Positions 33,226 through 51,700 of a DNA stretch of 64,000 nt are shown here, in pieces; position 1 is the stretch's first letter, and each line of letters starts with the position of its first letter. The translations under genes were made by a program, and so were the position numbers. A model generated the notes under the pieces. That model saw only the letters and a list, made by a program, of their open reading frames with translations, was not told the DNA's origin and did not search any database. Origin of the DNA: an uncultured Lutibacter sp. (GTDB lineage Bacteria > Bacteroidota > Bacteroidia > Flavobacteriales > Flavobacteriaceae); contig NZ_CALAEQ010000049.1 in NCBI RefSeq assembly GCF_937891065.1, positions 2,569 to 66,568 on the forward strand, read 5' to 3'.

Positions 33226-33365
33226 AATTATAATTTATTAAATTTAAATTAACGGAAAATTATGGTGATTGCTTTGGTCGCTATAAGAAGTAAATTATTA
33301 CTGCTTTAGCATTTTTTAAAGAGGTTGCAATCAGTTCAAATTTTTCCTCGAGTTATTTTCGGGTG

Positions 33366-33476: not shown

Positions 33477-33908
33477 ATGATGAAAAAAATAGTAATATTT
33501 TTATTTAGTTTAGTGTTGATTATGAGTTGTTCTAAAAGTGATGATATGCAAATTGTAATTGAACAAATGGAGGGAGATGTTGTGATTGATGATATGAATT
33601 CTAACACATTTTTCATGGGTGATTTTATTGCCAGAGCGCACCCAACTTCAGGAAAAACATCAGTAAATTCTGATGAAACAATATTGACTTTTACAAATTT
33701 TAAAACAGATAATGGACCAAAGTTGTTAGTTTATTTATCTACAGATGCTAGTTCTACTGAGTACATTAATCTTGGAGATTTAAAAGGTATTTCAGGTGAT
33801 TTCACTTATACAATTCCAACAAATACCGATTTGGAAAAATTTAAAATAGTGAACGTTTGGTGTGTAGATTTCTCAGTAAGTTTTGGTACTGCTGAATTAA
33901 AAAAATAA
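33477..33908 (+). CDS. DM13 domain-containing lipoprotein
   Basis: Lipoprotein signal (LIMSC) and a DM13-like segment (LTFTNFKTDNGPKLLVYLS). Confidence 0.65.
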   Translation: MMKKIVIFLFSLVLIMSCSKSDDMQIVIEQMEGDVVIDDMNSNTFFMGDFIARAHPTSGKTSVNSDETILTFTNFKTDNGPKLLVYLSTDASSTEYINLGDLKGISGDFTYTIPTNTDLEKFKIVNVWCVDFSVSFGTAELKK

Positions 33909-33938
33909 TTTTTTTGTTGCATATTTAAAAAATGTAAT

Positions 33939-33946
33939 TACATTTG
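33939..33946 (+). promoter_or_regulatory. -7 promoter box (TACATTTG) with upstream TTG, driving the metY leader
   Basis: Exact TAnnTTTG. A TTG at 33917-33919 lies 19 nt upstream. The first mini-ORF ATG lies 21 nt downstream. Confidence 0.5.
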
Positions 33947-33966
33947 CAGCAACAAAAAGATAAAAA

Positions 33967-34035
33967 ATGACAATTAAATTGAACAATATGTGTGGTATGA
34001 TGTGTAAAAATTACGCTGAGGCTACTATTGTTTAA
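33967..34035 (+). CDS. candidate leader peptide 1 (22 aa, MTIKLNNMCGMMCKNYAEATIV)
   Basis: Hand-translated. It has 3 internal Met and 2 Cys within 6 consecutive codons, an A-rich start context and a terminator downstream. Confidence 0.55.
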   Translation: MTIKLNNMCGMMCKNYAEATIV

Positions 34036-34056
34036 AATCTAATAATATATAACAAT

Positions 34057-34090
34057 AAAAAACCTCTGAATTATCAGAGGTTTTTTATTT
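34057..34090 (+). terminator. intrinsic terminator 1 in the metY leader
   Basis: cctctga-atta-tcagagg core stem, extendable with A/U pairs, followed by TTTTTT. Confidence 0.75.
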
Positions 34091-34106
34091 TAAAAAAATA
34101 ACTAAA

Positions 34107-34199
34107 ATGAATTTAAATTTCCAAAAAAATATGTGCAACCTAATGACAATGTGTATGCAAATGATGTGTAGCACAATGAAACGGTATTGCCTAAAATAA
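34107..34199 (+). CDS. candidate leader peptide 2 (30 aa, MNLNFQKNMCNLMTMCMQMMCSTMKRYCLK)
   Basis: Hand-translated. It has 7 internal Met and 4 Cys among 29 codons, with the MC dipeptide repeated. A terminator lies downstream. Confidence 0.6.
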   Translation: MNLNFQKNMCNLMTMCMQMMCSTMKRYCLK

Positions 34200-34225
34200 A
34201 TGGAAAAATAAAATCGAAAAGATTT

Positions 34226-34268
34226 AAGTCCCTTTGGTAATATCAAAATACCAAAGGGACTTTTTTTA
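34226..34268 (+). terminator. intrinsic terminator 2 in the metY leader
   Basis: gtccctttggta-(9 nt loop)-taccaaagggac 12-bp stem followed by TTTTTTT. It lies 38 nt before the metY ATG. Confidence 0.8.
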
Positions 34269-34305
34269 TTTCAAAAACTAGAAGAAAAATATTAAAAATA
34301 TAATT

Positions 34306-35595
34306 ATGAGTACTCAAAAAATATCAACACAAGCATTACACGCAGGACACGACACAACTAAAACAGGAGGAACAAGAGCTGTGCCAATTTATCAAACATC
34401 ATCGTATGTATTTAATGATACAGAACACGCAGCAAATTTGTTTTCGTTAAAAGAATTAGGATTTATTTATACACGATTAAACAATCCAACTAACGATATT
34501 TTACAACAACGTTTGGCAGCAATTGAAGGAGGAATAGGAGCAGTTGTTTTTGCTTCAGGAACTTCAGCAATTTCTACAGGATTATTAACTTTATTAAAAG
34601 CAGGAGATCATATTGTAGCTTCTAGTAGTTTGTATGGCGGAACGTTTACACTGTTAAATGTTACCTTACCAAGATTAGGAATTACAACTACGTTTGTAGA
34701 TGCATCAAATCCTGAAAATTTTAAAAATGCTGTTCAAGATAATACAAGAGCCTTTTTTGTGGAATCTTTAGGGAATCCAAAATTAGATGTGTTAGATTTA
34801 GAAGCAATTGCTGAACATTCTAAACCGGCTGGAGTACCATTTATTGTTGATAATACTGTCGCAAGTCCAGCTTTATTGAATCCTATAAAACACGGAGCAA
34901 ATTTAGTAATTCATTCATTAACTAAATATATTGGCGGACAAGGAAACTCTTTAGGAGGTGCAATTATTGATGCAGGTACTTTTGATTGGAGAAATGGAAA
35001 ATTTCCAGAATTTACAGAGCCTTCAGCTGGATATCACGGGTTGGTTTATAGCGAAGCTTTAGGAGCGGCGGCTTTTACATTTAAATTGATTTTAGAAGGA
35101 TTGCGTGATTTTGGAGGTGCTTTAAGTCCGTTTAATGCTTTCCAAATTATTCAAGGATTAGAAACATTACCGGTGCGTATCAAACAACACAGTGCAAATG
35201 CCTTAGAATTAGCACAATGGTTAGAAAGTAGAGAAGAAGTGGCTTGGGTAAATTACCCAGGATTAGAAAGTAGTAAATACAATACTTTAGCTAAAAAATA
35301 TTTACCAAAGGGTCAAAGCGGACTAGTTACTTTTGGTGTTAAAGGAGGTTTTGAAGCTGCTAAAATAGTGACAGATGCTACTAAAATATTTTCGTTATTG
35401 GCAAATATTGGAGATACAAAATCATTAATAATTCACCCAGCAAGTACCACTCATCAACAATTAACGGTTGAGCAACAATCTGCAGCTGGAGTAACACAAG
35501 ATTTAATAAGATTGTCAGTAGGAATTGAAGATATTGATGATTTAAAGCAAGATTTACAAGAGGCTTTTGCAGCAATTTCTGAATTGGCAATATAG
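34306..35595 (+). CDS. metY: O-acetylhomoserine sulfhydrylase (aminocarboxypropyltransferase)
   Basis: 429 aa Cys/Met-metabolism PLP enzyme with the HSLTKYIGG lysine motif. The N-terminus (TQALHAGH...VPIYQTSSY) is typical of MetY/MET17. Confidence 0.9.
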   Translation: MSTQKISTQALHAGHDTTKTGGTRAVPIYQTSSYVFNDTEHAANLFSLKELGFIYTRLNNPTNDILQQRLAAIEGGIGAVVFASGTSAISTGLLTLLKAGDHIVASSSLYGGTFTLLNVTLPRLGITTTFVDASNPENFKNAVQDNTRAFFVESLGNPKLDVLDLEAIAEHSKPAGVPFIVDNTVASPALLNPIKHGANLVIHSLTKYIGGQGNSLGGAIIDAGTFDWRNGKFPEFTEPSAGYHGLVYSEALGAAAFTFKLILEGLRDFGGALSPFNAFQIIQGLETLPVRIKQHSANALELAQWLESREEVAWVNYPGLESSKYNTLAKKYLPKGQSGLVTFGVKGGFEAAKIVTDATKIFSLLANIGDTKSLIIHPASTTHQQLTVEQQSAAGVTQDLIRLSVGIEDIDDLKQDLQEAFAAISELAI

Positions 35596-35624: not shown

Positions 35625-35728
35625 ATAATTAACAAAATTCAAAAAAAAGTTATTTAAATAGAAAACAATTGTTTAGAAAAAAAATAGTGCGTTAATTTGC
35701 TGCTTAGTTCATATACTTATTGACTATT

Positions 35729-35824
35729 GTTATCAAGAAAGGCAGAGGGAATAGACCCTATGAAGCCTTAGCAACCCTTTATTTATAAAGAAGGTGCTAA
35801 ATTCTACCCATTTGGATAGATAAC
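35729..35824 (+). promoter_or_regulatory. SAM-I (S-box) riboswitch aptamer
   Basis: gttatcaagaaaggcagagggaatagaccctatgaagccttagcaaccc...gaaggtgctaaattctaccc...ggatagataac. It has the conserved GAGGGA, GCAACC and GGUGCUAA cores, and P1 is closed by gttatc/gataac. Confidence 0.85.
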
Positions 35825-35929
35825 TCAATAAAATTACTTCGTGTAGTTTTCTGCAATTTTTCATAACATTATTTTTTAAGCAATATCAACTCAAATTAAT
35901 TGAGTATGAATCAATTTATAATATAATTA

Positions 35930-38900
35930 ATGAGTCAATTAAAAAACATAAGAATATCTAATTTCATTCCTGAGAAAAGAACTGAAGGGCAAGAAATAAA
36001 TTTGTCGTACCAACTATTTGGTAAAGAATTATTTTCTGCACCTATTGTTTTAATAAATCATGCATTAACGGGAAACTCAGATGTAGCTGGTGAAAATGGT
36101 TGGTGGAAAGATGTAGTAGGTGAGGACAAAGTAATAGACACCGGAAAATATACCATTTTAGCATTTAATATACCGGGAAATGGTTATGATGGATTTGTAA
36201 TCGAAAATTATAAAGATTTTGTTGCTCGAGATATTGCAAATCTGTTTTTAATTGGTTTAAAACAACTAAAAGTTAACGAATTATTTGCAATTGTAGGAGG
36301 TTCTTTGGGGGGTGGTATTGCTTGGGAAATGGCAGTTTTAAACCCTGTGATTGCAAAACATTTAATTGTTGTTGCAACAGATTGGAAATCGACTGATTGG
36401 TTGATAGCAAATTGTCAGATTCAAGAACAGTTTTTATCAAATTCATGTAATCCAGTACACGATGCTCGTATGCACGCTATGTTGTGTTATAGAACTCCAG
36501 AATCGTTTAAAGAGCGTTTTCAACGTTCGAAAAATGAAGATTTAGAAATTTTTAATGTTGAGAGTTGGTTGTTGCATCATGGAAATAAATTGCAGGAGCG
36601 TTTTCAATTATCAGCTTATAAATTAATGAATCAATTGTTAAAAACTATTGATGTTACTATAGGAAGAGCAGAAAATGTATTGGATGCAATTAAAGCAAAT
36701 ATTCATATTATAGGAGTAAACTCAGATTTGTTTTTTTCTGCTGAAGAGAACAAAGAAACACAAAAGCAATTAGCGTTATTAAACCCAAATGTTACTTATA
36801 ACGAAATTAATTCTGTTCACGGACACGATGCTTTTTTAATAGAATATGAGCAATTGAAAAAAATAATAGCGCCAATATTTAATAAAAATTTTAAGAATAA
36901 CAACATGAAGGTAGTAAAGTTTGGAGGAAAATCATTAGCAAATGGTAAAGGCTTAGAGAGCACGCTAGCTATTATTAAAAATAAAATAAACCAAGGTGAA
37001 AAGATTGCAGTTGTTGTTTCAGCAAGAGGTAAAACGACTGATCATTTAGAGTCAATTTTAATGAAATCTAAAAATAACTTACCTTATCTAGAAGAGTTTG
37101 AAATGCTTAAAAATTATCAAACAGCAATTGATGAAACTATCAATTTTAATGAAGAGTTTAAATTGTTAGATGAAATTTTTAGAGGTGTTAATTTGTTGGG
37201 TGATTATAGTGAAAAAGTGAAAGATCAGGTACTTTCACAAGGGGAAATATTGTCGGGAAAATCAATTGCATATTTACTGAATAAACAAGGTGTTAAGGCT
37301 AATTTTGTTGATGCTAGAACCTTAATAAAAACAAATGAACAATTTGGAGAAGCTCAACCATTTGAAGGTATTTCAGAAGATAATGTAATAGCACATTTTA
37401 AGCAACATAATGGAGATACTACTCAAATAATCACAGGTTTTATTGGCTCTAATTTAAATGGAGAAACAACAACTTTGGGTAGAAACGGAAGTAATTATAC
37501 AGCTGCTTTAATTGCAAACTTTTTAAATGCTGAAGAGTTTCAAAATTACACACATTTAAACGGAATATATACAGCAAACCCTGATTTGGTTTCCACCTCA
37601 AAAAAGATTGAAAAGCTTTCATATCAAGAAGCCAACGAAATGGCAAATTTTGGAACAGATATTTTACATGCAAAAACCATTATCCCATTAATTGAAAAAA
37701 ATATTCCATTAAGAATCCTAAATACTTTTGATCCAGAAAATGAAGGAACTTTAATAGGTTCTGAAACTGAAAGAGGGGGAATTAAATCTTTGTCGGTTCA
37801 AGAAAATGTATGTTTGGTGAATTTTATTGGTCGAGGTTTATTAGGTAAAGTTGGTGTTGACGGACGAATTTTTGGCTCATTAGGTAAAGAAAATATAAGT
37901 GTTAGTATAATTTCTCAAGGATCCTCAGAACGTGGTATTGGTTTTATTGTTGATGCAAAAGATGGGTACAAGGCTAAAATTGTGTTGGAAAACGAGTTTA
38001 AAAATGAGTTTCAAAGTAAAGATGTAAGTCAAATTTATATTACGGAAGATGTTTCTGTGATATCCGTTATTGGACAAAGTTTACAGTCATTTAATCAACC
38101 TTATAGTGCGTTAATAAAAAATAGGATTACACCAATTTTAATTAATAATACGGTAACTGGTGAGAATGTTTGTTTGGTGGTTAAAAAATCCGATTTACGG
38201 AAAGCGGCAAATGTAATACATGGTGAAATATTTGGTGTTTCAAAAAATATTAACATTGCCATTTTTGGTAAAGGTTTGGTTGGAGGTACTTTAATAGAGC
38301 AAATTTTTAAAAGTCAGCAAAACATTTTAAAACGAAAAAATATTCATTTAAACATTTTCGCAGTTGCAAACTCAACCAATGTATTGTTAGATAAAAACGG
38401 AATTACAACCAATTGGAAAAATGACTTAGAAGATAATTCATTGAAGAACTACACAATTAATGACGTTATTGAATTTGCAGAAAAACATCATTTAGAAAAT
38501 TTAATAGCTATTGATAATACGGCAAGCAGTAAATTTATTGAAAATTATCTTCAGTTGATAGAGAACGGTTTCGATTTAATTTCATCTAATAAAATTGCAA
38601 ATACGGTTCGCTATGATGCTTATAAAGAATTACGTGAAAAAATAAAAGAAAACAATAAATCATATTTATACGAAACCAATGTTGGCGCTGGATTACCATT
38701 GGTTGATACCATTAAGTTACTACATGATTCAGGTGAAAATATTACAAGAATAAGAGGTGTTTTTTCGGGGTCATTAAGCTATTTATTTAATAATTTTTCT
38801 GTTCAAAACAGACCATTTTCAGAAGTTTTACAAGAAGCTATTGAAAACGGATATACAGAACCTGATCCACGTGAAGATTTATGTGGAAATGATGTAGGTC

Positions 38901-39322
38901 GTAAATTATTAATTCTAGCTCGTGAATTAGATTTACAAAACGAATTTGAAGATGTTAACATTGAAAATTTAATTCCAGAAAATTTGAGAGAAGGTTCAAC
39001 CACTGATTTTTTAAATAAATTAGATGTAATGGATGCTTATTTTCAAGATATAAAAGACAAACAAGAAGAAAATCATGTGTTAAGGTATATTGGTGATCTA
39101 TCTGGAAATTTACAAGAAGATAAAGGGAATTTAGATGTGAATTTAGTTTCTGTACCAAAAAACAGTGCATTAGGTCAAATACAAGGTGCTGATGCTATTT
39201 TTGAAATATACACAGAGTCTTATGGAGAAAAACCATTAGTAATTCAGGGAGCTGGAGCAGGTGCAGCGGTAACTGCTCGTGGAGTTTTTGGAGATATTTT
39301 AAGATTGGCAGATAAAAATTAA
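35930..39322 (+). CDS. Triple-fusion protein: homoserine O-acetyltransferase (MetX) plus aspartate kinase plus homoserine dehydrogenase
   Basis: aa 1-325 form an alpha/beta hydrolase MetX domain (INHALTGNS, GGSLGGG nucleophile elbow). aa 326 onward is MKVVKFGGKSL aspartokinase with ACT-like repeats. Then comes the IAIFGKGLVGG Rossmann of homoserine dehydrogenase. There is no stop codon across either junction. Confidence 0.85.
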   Translation: MSQLKNIRISNFIPEKRTEGQEINLSYQLFGKELFSAPIVLINHALTGNSDVAGENGWWKDVVGEDKVIDTGKYTILAFNIPGNGYDGFVIENYKDFVARDIANLFLIGLKQLKVNELFAIVGGSLGGGIAWEMAVLNPVIAKHLIVVATDWKSTDWLIANCQIQEQFLSNSCNPVHDARMHAMLCYRTPESFKERFQRSKNEDLEIFNVESWLLHHGNKLQERFQLSAYKLMNQLLKTIDVTIGRAENVLDAIKANIHIIGVNSDLFFSAEENKETQKQLALLNPNVTYNEINSVHGHDAFLIEYEQLKKIIAPIFNKNFKNNNMKVVKFGGKSLANGKGLESTLAIIKNKINQGEKIAVVVSARGKTTDHLESILMKSKNNLPYLEEFEMLKNYQTAIDETINFNEEFKLLDEIFRGVNLLGDYSEKVKDQVLSQGEILSGKSIAYLLNKQGVKANFVDARTLIKTNEQFGEAQPFEGISEDNVIAHFKQHNGDTTQIITGFIGSNLNGETTTLGRNGSNYTAALIANFLNAEEFQNYTHLNGIYTANPDLVSTSKKIEKLSYQEANEMANFGTDILHAKTIIPLIEKNIPLRILNTFDPENEGTLIGSETERGGIKSLSVQENVCLVNFIGRGLLGKVGVDGRIFGSLGKENISVSIISQGSSERGIGFIVDAKDGYKAKIVLENEFKNEFQSKDVSQIYITEDVSVISVIGQSLQSFNQPYSALIKNRITPILINNTVTGENVCLVVKKSDLRKAANVIHGEIFGVSKNINIAIFGKGLVGGTLIEQIFKSQQNILKRKNIHLNIFAVANSTNVLLDKNGITTNWKNDLEDNSLKNYTINDVIEFAEKHHLENLIAIDNTASSKFIENYLQLIENGFDLISSNKIANTVRYDAYKELREKIKENNKSYLYETNVGAGLPLVDTIKLLHDSGENITRIRGVFSGSLSYLFNNFSVQNRPFSEVLQEAIENGYTEPDPREDLCGNDVGRKLLILARELDLQNEFEDVNIENLIPENLREGSTTDFLNKLDVMDAYFQDIKDKQEENHVLRYIGDLSGNLQEDKGNLDVNLVSVPKNSALGQIQGADAIFEIYTESYGEKPLVIQGAGAGAAVTARGVFGDILRLADKN

Positions 39323-47508: not shown

Positions 47509-47590
47509 TGTATTATAAAAATGAATGGTTGTTTGTAATTCAAAAGAATATGCCGTTTCTTTGCACAAAGTTCATAAACATAGTTAATTA

Positions 47591-47691
47591 GTTATTAAGA
47601 AAGGCAGAGGGAATAGACCTATTGAAGCCTTAGCAACCCTTTAAAGCTAAAGAAGGTGCTACGTTCTACCGCAATTTTGTGGGAAAATAAC
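47591..47691 (+). promoter_or_regulatory. SAM-I (S-box) riboswitch aptamer
   Basis: gttattaagaaaggcagagggaatagacctattgaagccttagcaaccc...gaaggtgctacgttctaccg...gggaaaataac. P1 is gttatt/aataac. The core is nearly identical to the copy at 35729. Confidence 0.85.
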
Positions 47692-47750
47692 ACCTGCTTT
47701 TAAAGTAATTCTACTTAATAACTTCCAAATGTTTATGCTAAATTTTAAAA

Positions 47751-51496: not shown

Positions 51497-51700
51497 GAAT
51501 CAATAATTAGAAATTTTAACTGTGAATAAGCGTTAGCGATTGAAGTGATATCCTTTTTTGAAGTGAAATGGAGAAAAAGATTTAACGGAAAGCGCGACCT
51601 GAAAGGGAACGCCCAATAACTAAAAATGTAAAGTAAGAGTTCATTGTTTTAACAATAATTACAAGAATTAAGAGATGAACTTTTAAGCAATAAATAAAAA

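Follow-up and report, generated by a model that had tools for sequence, protein, structure and literature searches.

Putative tandem methionine-codon attenuators in the metY leader of Lutibacter and related Flavobacteriaceae

Leader-peptide attenuation is a textbook mechanism, while methionine regulons are run by S-adenosylmethionine (SAM) riboswitches, T-boxes or proteins of the MetJ and MetR type. Here we describe the 390-nucleotide (nt) leader of metY, the gene of O-acetylhomoserine sulfhydrylase, in a 64,000-nt stretch of DNA from an uncultured Lutibacter sp. (contig NZ_CALAEQ010000049.1, positions 2,569 to 66,568), referred to below as the window. The leader holds two mini open reading frames (mini-ORFs), two terminators of the hairpin-plus-U-run type and one Bacteroidota-type promoter; leaders of its kind also occur in several marine relatives of Lutibacter among the Flavobacteriaceae. 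Judging from comparative sequence analysis and RNA folding, the leader probably consists of two independent, serial, ribosome-mediated transcription attenuators that are read through their Met codons. Attenuation of this type is known, but methionine would be a specificity new to it, here moreover in tandem, and computationally this view is well supported. It builds on what sequence comparison and folding show: the anatomy of the leader, its conservation, the frame of its ATG codons, the covariation and geometry of its helices and its exclusivity with the SAM-I riboswitch.

The attenuator specificities listed in a 2013 survey are His, Leu, Thr, Trp, Ile/Val and Phe (PMC3766115), and methionine lies outside the specificities described for leader peptides. 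Like the trpL, hisL, pheL, leuL, thrL and ilvL leaders of Proteobacteria, each metY leader unit has a short ORF, in which codons for the end product of the pathway cluster, and an intrinsic terminator behind it; the 3’ end of the ORF doubles as the antiterminator 5’ strand, and the outcome would be set by the position of the ribosome. The use of just two adjacent regulatory codons in ORF1 recalls trpL. In contrast to the classical attenuators, the codon is AUG (Met), the host is a Bacteroidota species that does without Shine-Dalgarno sequences, and the two serial units are non-homologous. There is no sequence similarity to the classical leaders, since no Rfam leader model exceeds 25.6 bits, where gathering requires 49-55. 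Rfam searches at gathering thresholds and at E<=10 returned only sub-threshold matches to terminator-like families. The permissive cmscan of positions 33850-34400 had Phe_leader at 25.6 bits (threshold 55) and His_leader at 17.4 bits (threshold 49); it gave no match to T-box or Bacteroid-trp, nor to any SAM-family riboswitch at E<=10. Vitreschak and co-workers are said to have predicted, in 2004, Met codons in the thrA leader of Pasteurellales.

In Flavobacteriaceae, leader-peptide attenuation of trp, his and ilv has been reported (PMC9723704). The Bacteroid-trp leader and the ilvE and hisG leaders of Flavobacterium psychrophilum share with the metY leader the phylum, the presumed mechanism and a layout in which the ORF begins ~15-20 nt after TAnnTTTG and is followed by a hairpin and a U run, but they sense Trp, Ile or His. 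Transcriptome data of F. psychrophilum already show short transcripts at the very spot that interests us: two of them, Rfp20 and Rfp21, lie upstream of metY, were left unexplained and were not read as a leader peptide (PMC9723704). Rfp20 (strain THC02-90, 321293-321392, minus strand) precedes the metY-metX-hom operon and its level rises in the same conditions as that of metY (PMC9723704 supplement). Its 100-nt sequence begins at a -7 box; an ORF1-like frame (MKITICNICRMASENSAEYRIA...) comes next, a hairpin stands behind the Met codon, and CAGAG follows the hairpin. This layout matches that of unit 1, but the Rfp20 ORF has one Met and two Cys codons.

The original prediction knew of no described class of Met/Cys leader-peptide attenuators, which is nearly but not entirely correct. 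The one description of a Met leader-peptide attenuator that we found in the literature is ‘metL’, an ORF upstream of metNIQ in Streptomyces lividans TK24 that was proposed to encode a methionine-dependent leader peptide (PMC8079986). The ‘metL’ peptide, MSTTSDRTPATEATTTPGARCMCRRMCAF, ends in alternating Met and Cys (CMCRRMC), similar to NMCGMMC and TMCMQMMC of the metY leader. It differs in belonging to another phylum and to a transporter gene, in being leaderless and in having two internal Met codons only; its authors saw no typical intrinsic terminator and backed it neither by comparison nor by structure (PMC8079986). Homology between ‘metL’ and the metY leader ORFs is unlikely. A further system that involves a sulfur amino acid is that of poly-Cys leaderless short ORFs in mycobacteria (bioRxiv 10.1101/834739), and Cys-run ORFs have been predicted in Actinobacteria (PMC1262725). 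The mycobacterial ORFs resemble the metY leader in their runs of sulfur amino-acid codons, in ribosome stalling (predicted in the case of metY) and in the sulfur-metabolism genes that they precede, but they rely on Cys, are leaderless, form a single unit and have no intrinsic terminator, acting through translation and possibly Rho. In the metY leader, the ORF1 ATG lies 20 nt downstream of the end of the -7 box, the Cys codons are isolated and unconserved, and the terminators are strong. The Met-responsive 5’ untranslated region of Xanthomonas (PMC6230763) was also considered as a Met leader peptide and rejected, since it resembles SAM-I.

The element that most often occupies the place of the metY leader is the SAM-I riboswitch (RF00162). 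We collected 80 metY loci of Flavobacteriaceae by a MetY scan, one genome per species, and mapped SAM-I with Rfam on 20 diverse loci and then with an nhmmer profile on all 80. One of these loci (L025) is 98% identical to the window, and in a MetY protein search all proteins returned were at least 88% identical, the named ones being mostly from Lutibacter. SAM-I lies 108-198 nt upstream of metY in 60 of the 80 loci. Two of the 20 loci without SAM-I are cut off, one of which (L066) retains unit 2; among the 18 informative ones, 15 carry Met mini-ORFs with terminators, including 12 from Lutibacter, one from Flavicella (L013) and the clade of L067 and L076, and three (L012, L020 and L046) have neither element. 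No Met/Cys-rich mini-ORF adjoins metY in the 60 SAM-I loci; the sole ORF that passed the filter there (in L061) lies ~500 nt upstream, has no internal Met run and looks unrelated. The Met leader and SAM-I are mutually exclusive upstream of metY, and metY is the first gene 3’ of the leader in all genome loci. Genomes with the leader still have SAM-I, but downstream of metY, ahead of the next gene, which means that metY, given its own leader, is uncoupled from SAM control. The proposal that the leader is a regulatory input separate from the neighbouring SAM riboswitches is borne out by this arrangement. Both elements make a choice between terminator and antiterminator, predicted in the case of the leader, but SAM-I does so by direct binding of SAM to a four-helix aptamer and needs neither an ORF nor a ribosome, while the signal read by the metY leader would be the charging of Met-tRNA.

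More leaders were found in metagenomes with a pattern that describes the unit 1 terminator and four bases before it, GAGG-N25-55-CCTCTGA-N3-8-TCAGRGGTTTTT, and contains no Met codon. Most of the 120 matching loci are unrelated terminators (after tRNAs, within genes or in a phage-like mini-ORF family), but 22 passed a filter for Met runs, and in all 18 of these with enough downstream DNA the next gene is a MetY orthologue (77-95% identity). Their ORFs are of the Lutibacter type (MKIMFNKMSYMMCKIYTEDAIV and others), of the L067 type (MKNNSLNMVKMMMRCKSQRIFML, in about a dozen variants) or further ones (MRVNSLKPVKMMMCLMTQRLFME; MISIFCKSMMMMCPKAQRIGMD); the L167 locus has MKAIFNMMMMTMRN followed by MRIFKVEINSNSMGMMQSMIRYCHT. 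Altogether, an ORF1-type ORF of 22-24 codons (14 in L167) is present in 33 distinct leaders from at least five lineages.

These loci bear on the question of whether the mini-ORFs could be free-standing small genes, i.e., Met/Cys-rich peptides or small RNAs with their own terminators, with metY transcribed from an unrecognised promoter of its own. The strong terminator at the end of each unit and the short F. psychrophilum transcripts, which were called independent, would fit this, as would the finding that terminated leaders act in trans in other bacteria, e.g., rnTrpL/peTrpL (PMC7298713). However, TACATTTG is the sole plus-strand TAnnTTTG between 33477 and 34306, i.e., from the DM13 gene to metY, so that a search of this strand shows no -7 box either between the two units or between the leader and metY. 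TACATTTG and the TTG at 33917 are invariant across 13 Lutibacter leaders, and in other lineages TAnnTTTG stands at an equal distance from the mini-ORF. Apart from Met, the peptide sequence is poorly conserved; the elements exclude SAM-I and, in all 18 readable metagenome loci, stand directly upstream of metY and never elsewhere; and the 3’ ends of the ORFs are complementary to terminator arms, which a plain small gene would not need. We consider the small-gene explanation very improbable. A metal-binding peptide or a ribosomally synthesized and post-translationally modified peptide was rejected as well, there being no partner genes and no conservation of the residues.

The ORFs themselves stand out by their Met codons. 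When compared with the 267 ATG-initiated ORFs of 18-45 codons in the window, ORF2 is an extreme outlier, with 7 internal Met codons (runner-up 5) and 11 Met and Cys codons together (runner-up 6). ORF1, with 3 internal Met codons, is by itself only in the top ~6%, and the case for it therefore depends on conservation. Both mini-ORFs are kept in the same register in 12 of 12 Lutibacter loci, and start and stop share this register across the 13 Lutibacter leaders of the alignment. In that alignment ATGATGTGT of ORF1 is invariant, as are the ORF2 ATGs at codons 15, 17, 20 and 24, with the codons around them varying freely and non-synonymously. All 8 ATGs of ORF2 are in frame, and over the leader ORFs as a whole 170 ATG triplets are in frame as against 5 and 9 in the other two frames. 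In other lineages the Met run of ORF1 is MM, MMM or MMMM, so that it changes in 3-nt steps and never leaves the frame; likewise, ORF2 has a 12-nt in-frame deletion in L009 and a start shifted by 3 nt in L007. An ORF2-related ORF is found in L167 too. The units are modular: Flavicella has a single unit, MIFTINMCSNMMCGFRSVGDAIV, unit 1 also stands alone in L132 and L189, L067 and L076 have MRNNNLNMVKMMMRFRMQRIFML and a short second ORF, and other lineages have both units. The start context of the mini-ORFs is A-rich, like that of metY. A chance origin of the ORFs in AT-rich DNA was rejected on conservation and frame. The leader ORFs, of 22-30 codons, are absent from protein databases (an exact look-up gave as its sole match an unnamed 43-amino-acid (aa) extended form of ORF2), and the element could join the libraries of RNA and leader motifs of Flavobacteriaceae.

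The same comparisons speak to the possibility that the leader works without translation, as a structured RNA with a ligand or a protein as its signal, the AUG-rich stretches being binding or structural motifs and the ORFs incidental. In many blocks it is indeed the nucleotides rather than the amino acids that are conserved, the residues other than Met drift, and every other Met unit nearby is under a SAM riboswitch. Yet a structured RNA would not explain why the ATGs keep to one frame (170 to 14), why the runs change length by whole codons and the indels preserve the frame, or why start and stop codons hold their place relative to the helices across lineages that differ in sequence. The leader matches no Rfam family, the best scores being far under gathering, and it has no conserved multi-helix core that would resemble an aptamer, solely mutually exclusive hairpins. 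This, too, leaves a structured RNA very unlikely, and the protein-bound AUGUGU repeat and the Rho-based mechanism suggested in the original prediction are not needed.

The original prediction had both Met and Cys sensed, and only its Met part agrees with the comparison, in which invariant in-frame ATGs contrast with mostly unconserved Cys codons. If the Cys codons beside the Met codons were also regulatory, metY would respond to the charging of both tRNAs. The present strain encourages this idea with 6 Cys codons, mostly in ATG-TGY pairs, and so do ORF1 of L158 with MCCMIC and its ORF2 with a CCC run, the F. psychrophilum Rfp20 ORF, which reads ICNICRM, the CMCRRMC of the S. lividans ‘metL’ candidate and the existence of poly-Cys attenuators in mycobacteria. 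Within Lutibacter, however, the Cys positions are not conserved: TGT is exchanged with CGT, CAT, TCT, TTT and TAT (Arg, His, Ser, Phe and Tyr). ORF1 of the L067 clade contains no Cys at all in two genome loci and at most one in the metagenome members, and the two Cys codons that are invariant fall within conserved RNA helices (UGUGUAA of hairpin P1, and GGUAUUGCC). Moreover, in direct sulfhydrylation the sulfur donor of MetY is sulfide and not cysteine. Richness in Cys thus marks the strain more than the family and, weighing the evidence for and against, we regard Cys as a weak candidate for a second input and Cys sensing as rather unlikely. The expectation that orthologous leaders would keep mini-ORFs with Met/Cys runs through synonymous drift while their terminators covary came true for the Met runs and the terminators; the neighbouring codons change non-synonymously and Cys is not conserved.

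When folded as RNA, positions 33950-34310 reach a minimum free energy (MFE) of -79.7 kcal/mol versus -45.4 +/- 4.6 kcal/mol for shuffled sequences (z-score -7.5), and show two long hairpins with a U run behind each of them. A simple terminator scan listed hairpin 1 solely as a minus-strand site and missed hairpin 2, the 9-nt loop of which is beyond the 3-8 limit of the scan. The stem of terminator 1 pairs in 99.7% of cells in 32 leaders, in 20 of which the search pattern had dictated its core. Hairpin P1, which adjoins the Met run on its 3’ side, shows both-side changes in 5 of its 7 pairs, and 0 of 500 shuffles reach its observed score (32 leaders); it may act as a pause element or as a 1:2 element. 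The stem that encloses the ORF of unit 1 pairs in 86.8% of cells in 18 Lutibacter-type leaders, compared with 38-49% when the strands are slid, with weak covariation.

Antiterminators, of which no convincing example had been recognised in the original prediction, were found for both units by duplex folding, by folding of nascent RNA and by comparison of the 33 leaders. In unit 1, the tattgtt/aacaata and gagg/cctc pairings, previously taken for separate weak fragments, are two helices of a single antiterminator. Its general form is (C)AGAGG, then CUAUUGUU, paired with AACAAUAG-like bases and CCUCUG before or within the 5’ arm of the terminator. RNAduplex gives -8.4 to -9.7 kcal/mol for this pairing in the window and, over the 33 leaders, -9.7 to -20.3 kcal/mol versus shuffle means of -4.6 to -9.9; in all but two of the 33, it is stronger than in shuffled sequences (p<=0.05 in 31). 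Helix b covaries between clades: it is CUAU:AUAG or UAUUGUUU:AAACAAUA in Lutibacter and AUUUUUAUGC:(G)CAUAAAAA(U) in the L067 clade, and AUUUUUAU:AUAAAAAU is another variant that still pairs. In Flavicella the antiterminator is a continuous GAUCUGUAGGGG:CCUCUAUAGAUU and the terminator stem itself is altered. The antiterminator also keeps its place: counted from the A of the final ATG in the Met run, pairing begins 10-20 nt (median 15) downstream, just out of reach (~12 nt) for a ribosome that has this codon in its A site, and the last paired nt lies a median of 0 nt from the stop codon. RNAalifold, run on a 16-sequence alignment and on 18 shortened leaders, returned P1 and the terminator but no long-range or alternative helices, and for this reason these were examined through duplex folding, through masking and by counting the pairs explicitly.

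The structures of unit 2 follow the same plan with different sequences. Terminator 2 pairs in 99.3% of cells, with compensatory changes in 3 pairs, and none of 500 shuffles reaches its observed score. The antiterminator duplex has -11.6 kcal/mol in the window and -17 to -18 kcal/mol, with 12-13 base pairs, in most Lutibacter; its core pairs in 94.9% of cells versus at most 52% when slid (13 leaders). Pairing survives a G-to-A change in L005 and L158 and a U-to-C change of the L076 type, and in L167 segments 2, 3 and 4 have changed jointly, to GCCAC in the ORF, GUGG in the 5’ arm of the terminator and CCAC in its 3’ arm. In the L067 clade, the unit 2 ORF has ~14 codons (M..KMIRYCHLR) with one internal Met, and the terminator is weaker; Met stalling does not explain the function of this unit. 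The GGUAUUGCC:GGYAAUACC helix is kept in unit 2 of the clade, seen in L066, L067, L076, L082, L093, L114, L115, L119, L129, L134, L143, L168, L191 and L199.

The logic of the switch was tested by folding the nascent RNA up to just before the 3’ arm of each terminator, with a 28-nt mask in place of the ribosome. In these folds unit 1 without a ribosome forms the ORF-enclosing stem, which leaves the 5’ arm of the terminator free and predicts termination. Only with the A site on Met codons (33988, 33997 or 34000) does the antiterminator form, and with the A site on the stop codon segment 2 is covered, again predicting termination. In unit 2 the antiterminator is the MFE structure of the nascent RNA in the absence of a ribosome, which would give read-through; it also forms with the A site on the Met codons from 9 to 20, whereas an A site on Met24 or on the stop codon covers segment 2 and predicts termination. 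When the full-length RNA is folded with the mask, the terminator is present in every MFE structure, which a kinetic switch would lead one to expect, and only the nascent-RNA folds are therefore informative. One more alternative is that the units depend on translation but not on a particular amino acid and report general translation capacity, as attenuators of the pyrBI or ermC type do. Such an explanation could account for the prediction that unit 2 terminates only if a ribosome reaches the end of its ORF, in which case any slowdown would register, and for the short L067-clade ORFs with a single Met. It does not account for the Met run at a fixed distance from the antiterminator, which is the one feature common to all lineages, nor for the facts that the regulated gene is always a Met-pathway enzyme and that the leader stands in for a SAM sensor; we consider it quite unlikely.

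Sensing of Met by two attenuators could work as follows, with translation of the mini-ORFs, stalling at their Met codons and the action of the terminators in vivo being predictions from the sequence. Transcription would start a few nt past the -7 box and a ribosome would load on ORF1. With Met-tRNA(Met) plentiful, it would reach the ORF1 stop codon and cover the 5’ strand of the antiterminator, so that the terminator 1 hairpin could form and the transcript would end near 34086. If elongator Met-tRNA is scarce, the ribosome should stall on ATG-ATG with its front edge short of GAGG..UAUUGU, which would then be free to pair with ACAAUA..CCUC of the terminator 1 5’ arm and let RNA polymerase read through. 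In unit 2, a stall on ORF2 codons 9-20 would free GGUAUUGCC for GGUAAUAUC, and one that had advanced to codon 24 or to the stop codon would cover GGUAUUGCC. MetY would be made only with both gates open, which should make the response steeper. Tandem cis-regulators are familiar from the mgtM and mgtP leader ORFs of Salmonella mgtCBR, tandem riboswitches and T-boxes, and with sensors in series control becomes combined or sharper; mgtM and mgtP share a leader but answer to different signals, whereas the metY units appear to read the same amino acid, each with its own complete terminator.

Several observations weigh against Met-codon attenuation. A lack of Met also limits initiation, and unit 1 without a ribosome is predicted to terminate. 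ORF1 has only three internal Met codons, and a stall at Met24 of ORF2 or at the single Met of the L067-clade unit 2 would block the antiterminator rather than free it. The 1:2 anti-antiterminator of unit 1 is only modestly supported, and antiterminator 1 of the window is weak, with CUGAGG in place of CAGAGG and p=0.056 in one of two tests. GAGG:CCUC and the terminator core were imposed on the metagenome set by the search pattern, and their invariance there proves nothing. Finally, related sequences share ancestry, due to which shuffle controls overstate significance. On balance, the conserved ORFs, in-frame Met codons, covarying terminators and antiterminators still make two tandem leader-peptide attenuators at metY, as originally predicted, the probable arrangement.

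An attenuator that reads Met codons would let the cell gauge the Met available for translation apart from SAM, and metY would be a natural case of one type of sensor exchanged for another at the same gene. A bolder proposal, which we advance tentatively, is that the metY leaders are the first well-defined class of Met-sensing leader-peptide attenuators: the charging of elongator Met-tRNA would be readable by ribosome stalling even though initiation needs Met, a translational sensor would have replaced SAM-I at metY in some Flavobacteriaceae, the serial units would have opposite defaults when untranslated (unit 1 terminates and unit 2 reads through), and some strains may also read Cys-tRNA via interleaved Cys codons.

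The coordinates of the leader and of the features around it are given in Table 1. The mini-ORFs, the terminators, the promoter and metY lie where the original prediction had put them, as the sequence itself, its translation, folding and TIGR01326 confirm.

Table 1. Coordinates, in the window, of the metY leader elements and of neighbouring features.
Feature	Position	Strand	Details
Putative promoter, Bacteroidota-type	33917..33946	+	TTG (-33) 33917-33919; TACATTTG (-7 box) 33939-33946
Leader ORF1, 22 codons, MTIKLNNMCGMMCKNYAEATIV	33967..34035	+	Translation and conservation
Unit 1 segment 1	33979..33996	+	Predicted pairing with 34021-34035 (anti-antiterminator, ORF-enclosing stem) without ribosome
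ORF1 putative regulatory codons ATG TGT GGT ATG ATG TGT	33988..34005	+	ATG-ATG run 33997-34002
Hairpin P1 (GUGUAA-AAA-UUACGC), directly after Met run	34002..34016	+	Covariation; role putative
Antiterminator 1, 5’ strand	34018..34031	+	GAGG 34018-34021 and UAUUGU 34026-34031; in last 6 ORF1 codons
Antiterminator 1, 3’ strand	34052..34066	+	ACAAUA 34052-34057 and CCUC 34063-34066; overlaps terminator 1 5’ arm
Terminator 1, intrinsic	34054..34089	+	16-bp stem, AUUA loop, U run 34081-34086
Leader ORF2, 30 codons, MNLNFQKNMCNLMTMCMQMMCSTMKRYCLK	34107..34199	+	Translation and conservation
ORF2 Met codon cluster	34131..34178	+	ATG at 34131, 34143, 34149, 34155, 34161, 34164, 34176
Antiterminator 2, 5’ strand GGUAUUGCC (ORF2 codons 26-29)	34183..34191	+	Stop codon 6 nt downstream
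Terminator 2, intrinsic	34226..34267	+	14-bp stem, 9-nt loop, U7 34261-34267
Antiterminator 2, 3’ strand GGUAAUAUC	34236..34244	+	Distal 5’ arm and loop of terminator 2
metY, O-acetylhomoserine sulfhydrylase, regulated gene	34306..35595	+	429 aa; TIGR01326, 619 bits
SAM-II riboswitch, in front of metK	33296-33355	-	Rfam
DM13-domain gene, 143 aa, upstream neighbour of leader	33477-33908	+	PF10517, 75 bits
SAM-I riboswitch, directly after metY, ahead of 1130-aa fusion	35727-35826	+	Rfam
SAM-I riboswitch, second in window	47589-47693	+	Rfam
Flavo-1 RNA	51514-51603	+	Rfam

The part of the window around the leader is a methionine island, with metK on the minus strand, then the DM13 gene, the leader and metY, and then a SAM-I-led MetX fusion; taken as a whole, the window is a methionine regulon densely packed with cis-sensors of three different kinds. 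The fusion behind the first SAM-I riboswitch is a 1130-aa ORF (35930-39322, plus strand) in which a MetX-like homoserine O-acetyltransferase (residues ~20-320) is joined to aspartokinase/homoserine dehydrogenase (326-1128), three activities in one polypeptide. On the other side, the DM13 gene is followed by the leader promoter with no visible terminator in between. The C-terminal sequence of the DM13 protein recurs in L067 and L076, where it likewise immediately precedes the leader.

Two further metY loci deserve mention. The Lutibacter-type leader of L158 (4042-4170, minus strand) has ORFs rich in Cys, MTINLNIMCCMICKVCTEASIV and, in unit 2, MNITFQKNIVNCCCMTMQMMHNTMQWYYLN. Its metY starts with ATA and not with ATG, and so it may be a pseudogene or reflect an assembly error. 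In L020 (2780-3000, plus strand), a Gln-rich mini-ORF, MSIQQRQVSEQPFRRFF, follows TAnnTTTG and overlaps a CAGAGAC/GUCUCUG hairpin with a U run; it may be a diverged or re-purposed unit 1.

The metagenome scan also revealed a different conserved mini-ORF in freshwater contigs (L085, L094, L098, L100, L124, L131, L133, L156, L161, L174, L178, L181 and L183). This mini-ORF, MKHFLNIAIDFQLRKEDDLLEDTIKCQRK or MQQFLNIAEVQLDRLEDIEKCQRN, has CAGAGG at its end and the familiar CCTCTGA...TCAGAGG terminator behind it, and further downstream are tRNA genes and an ORF starting with MARKEKKYHYIYKITCLKN. The family has no Met codons and no metY, and its tRNA array may hint at a phage.

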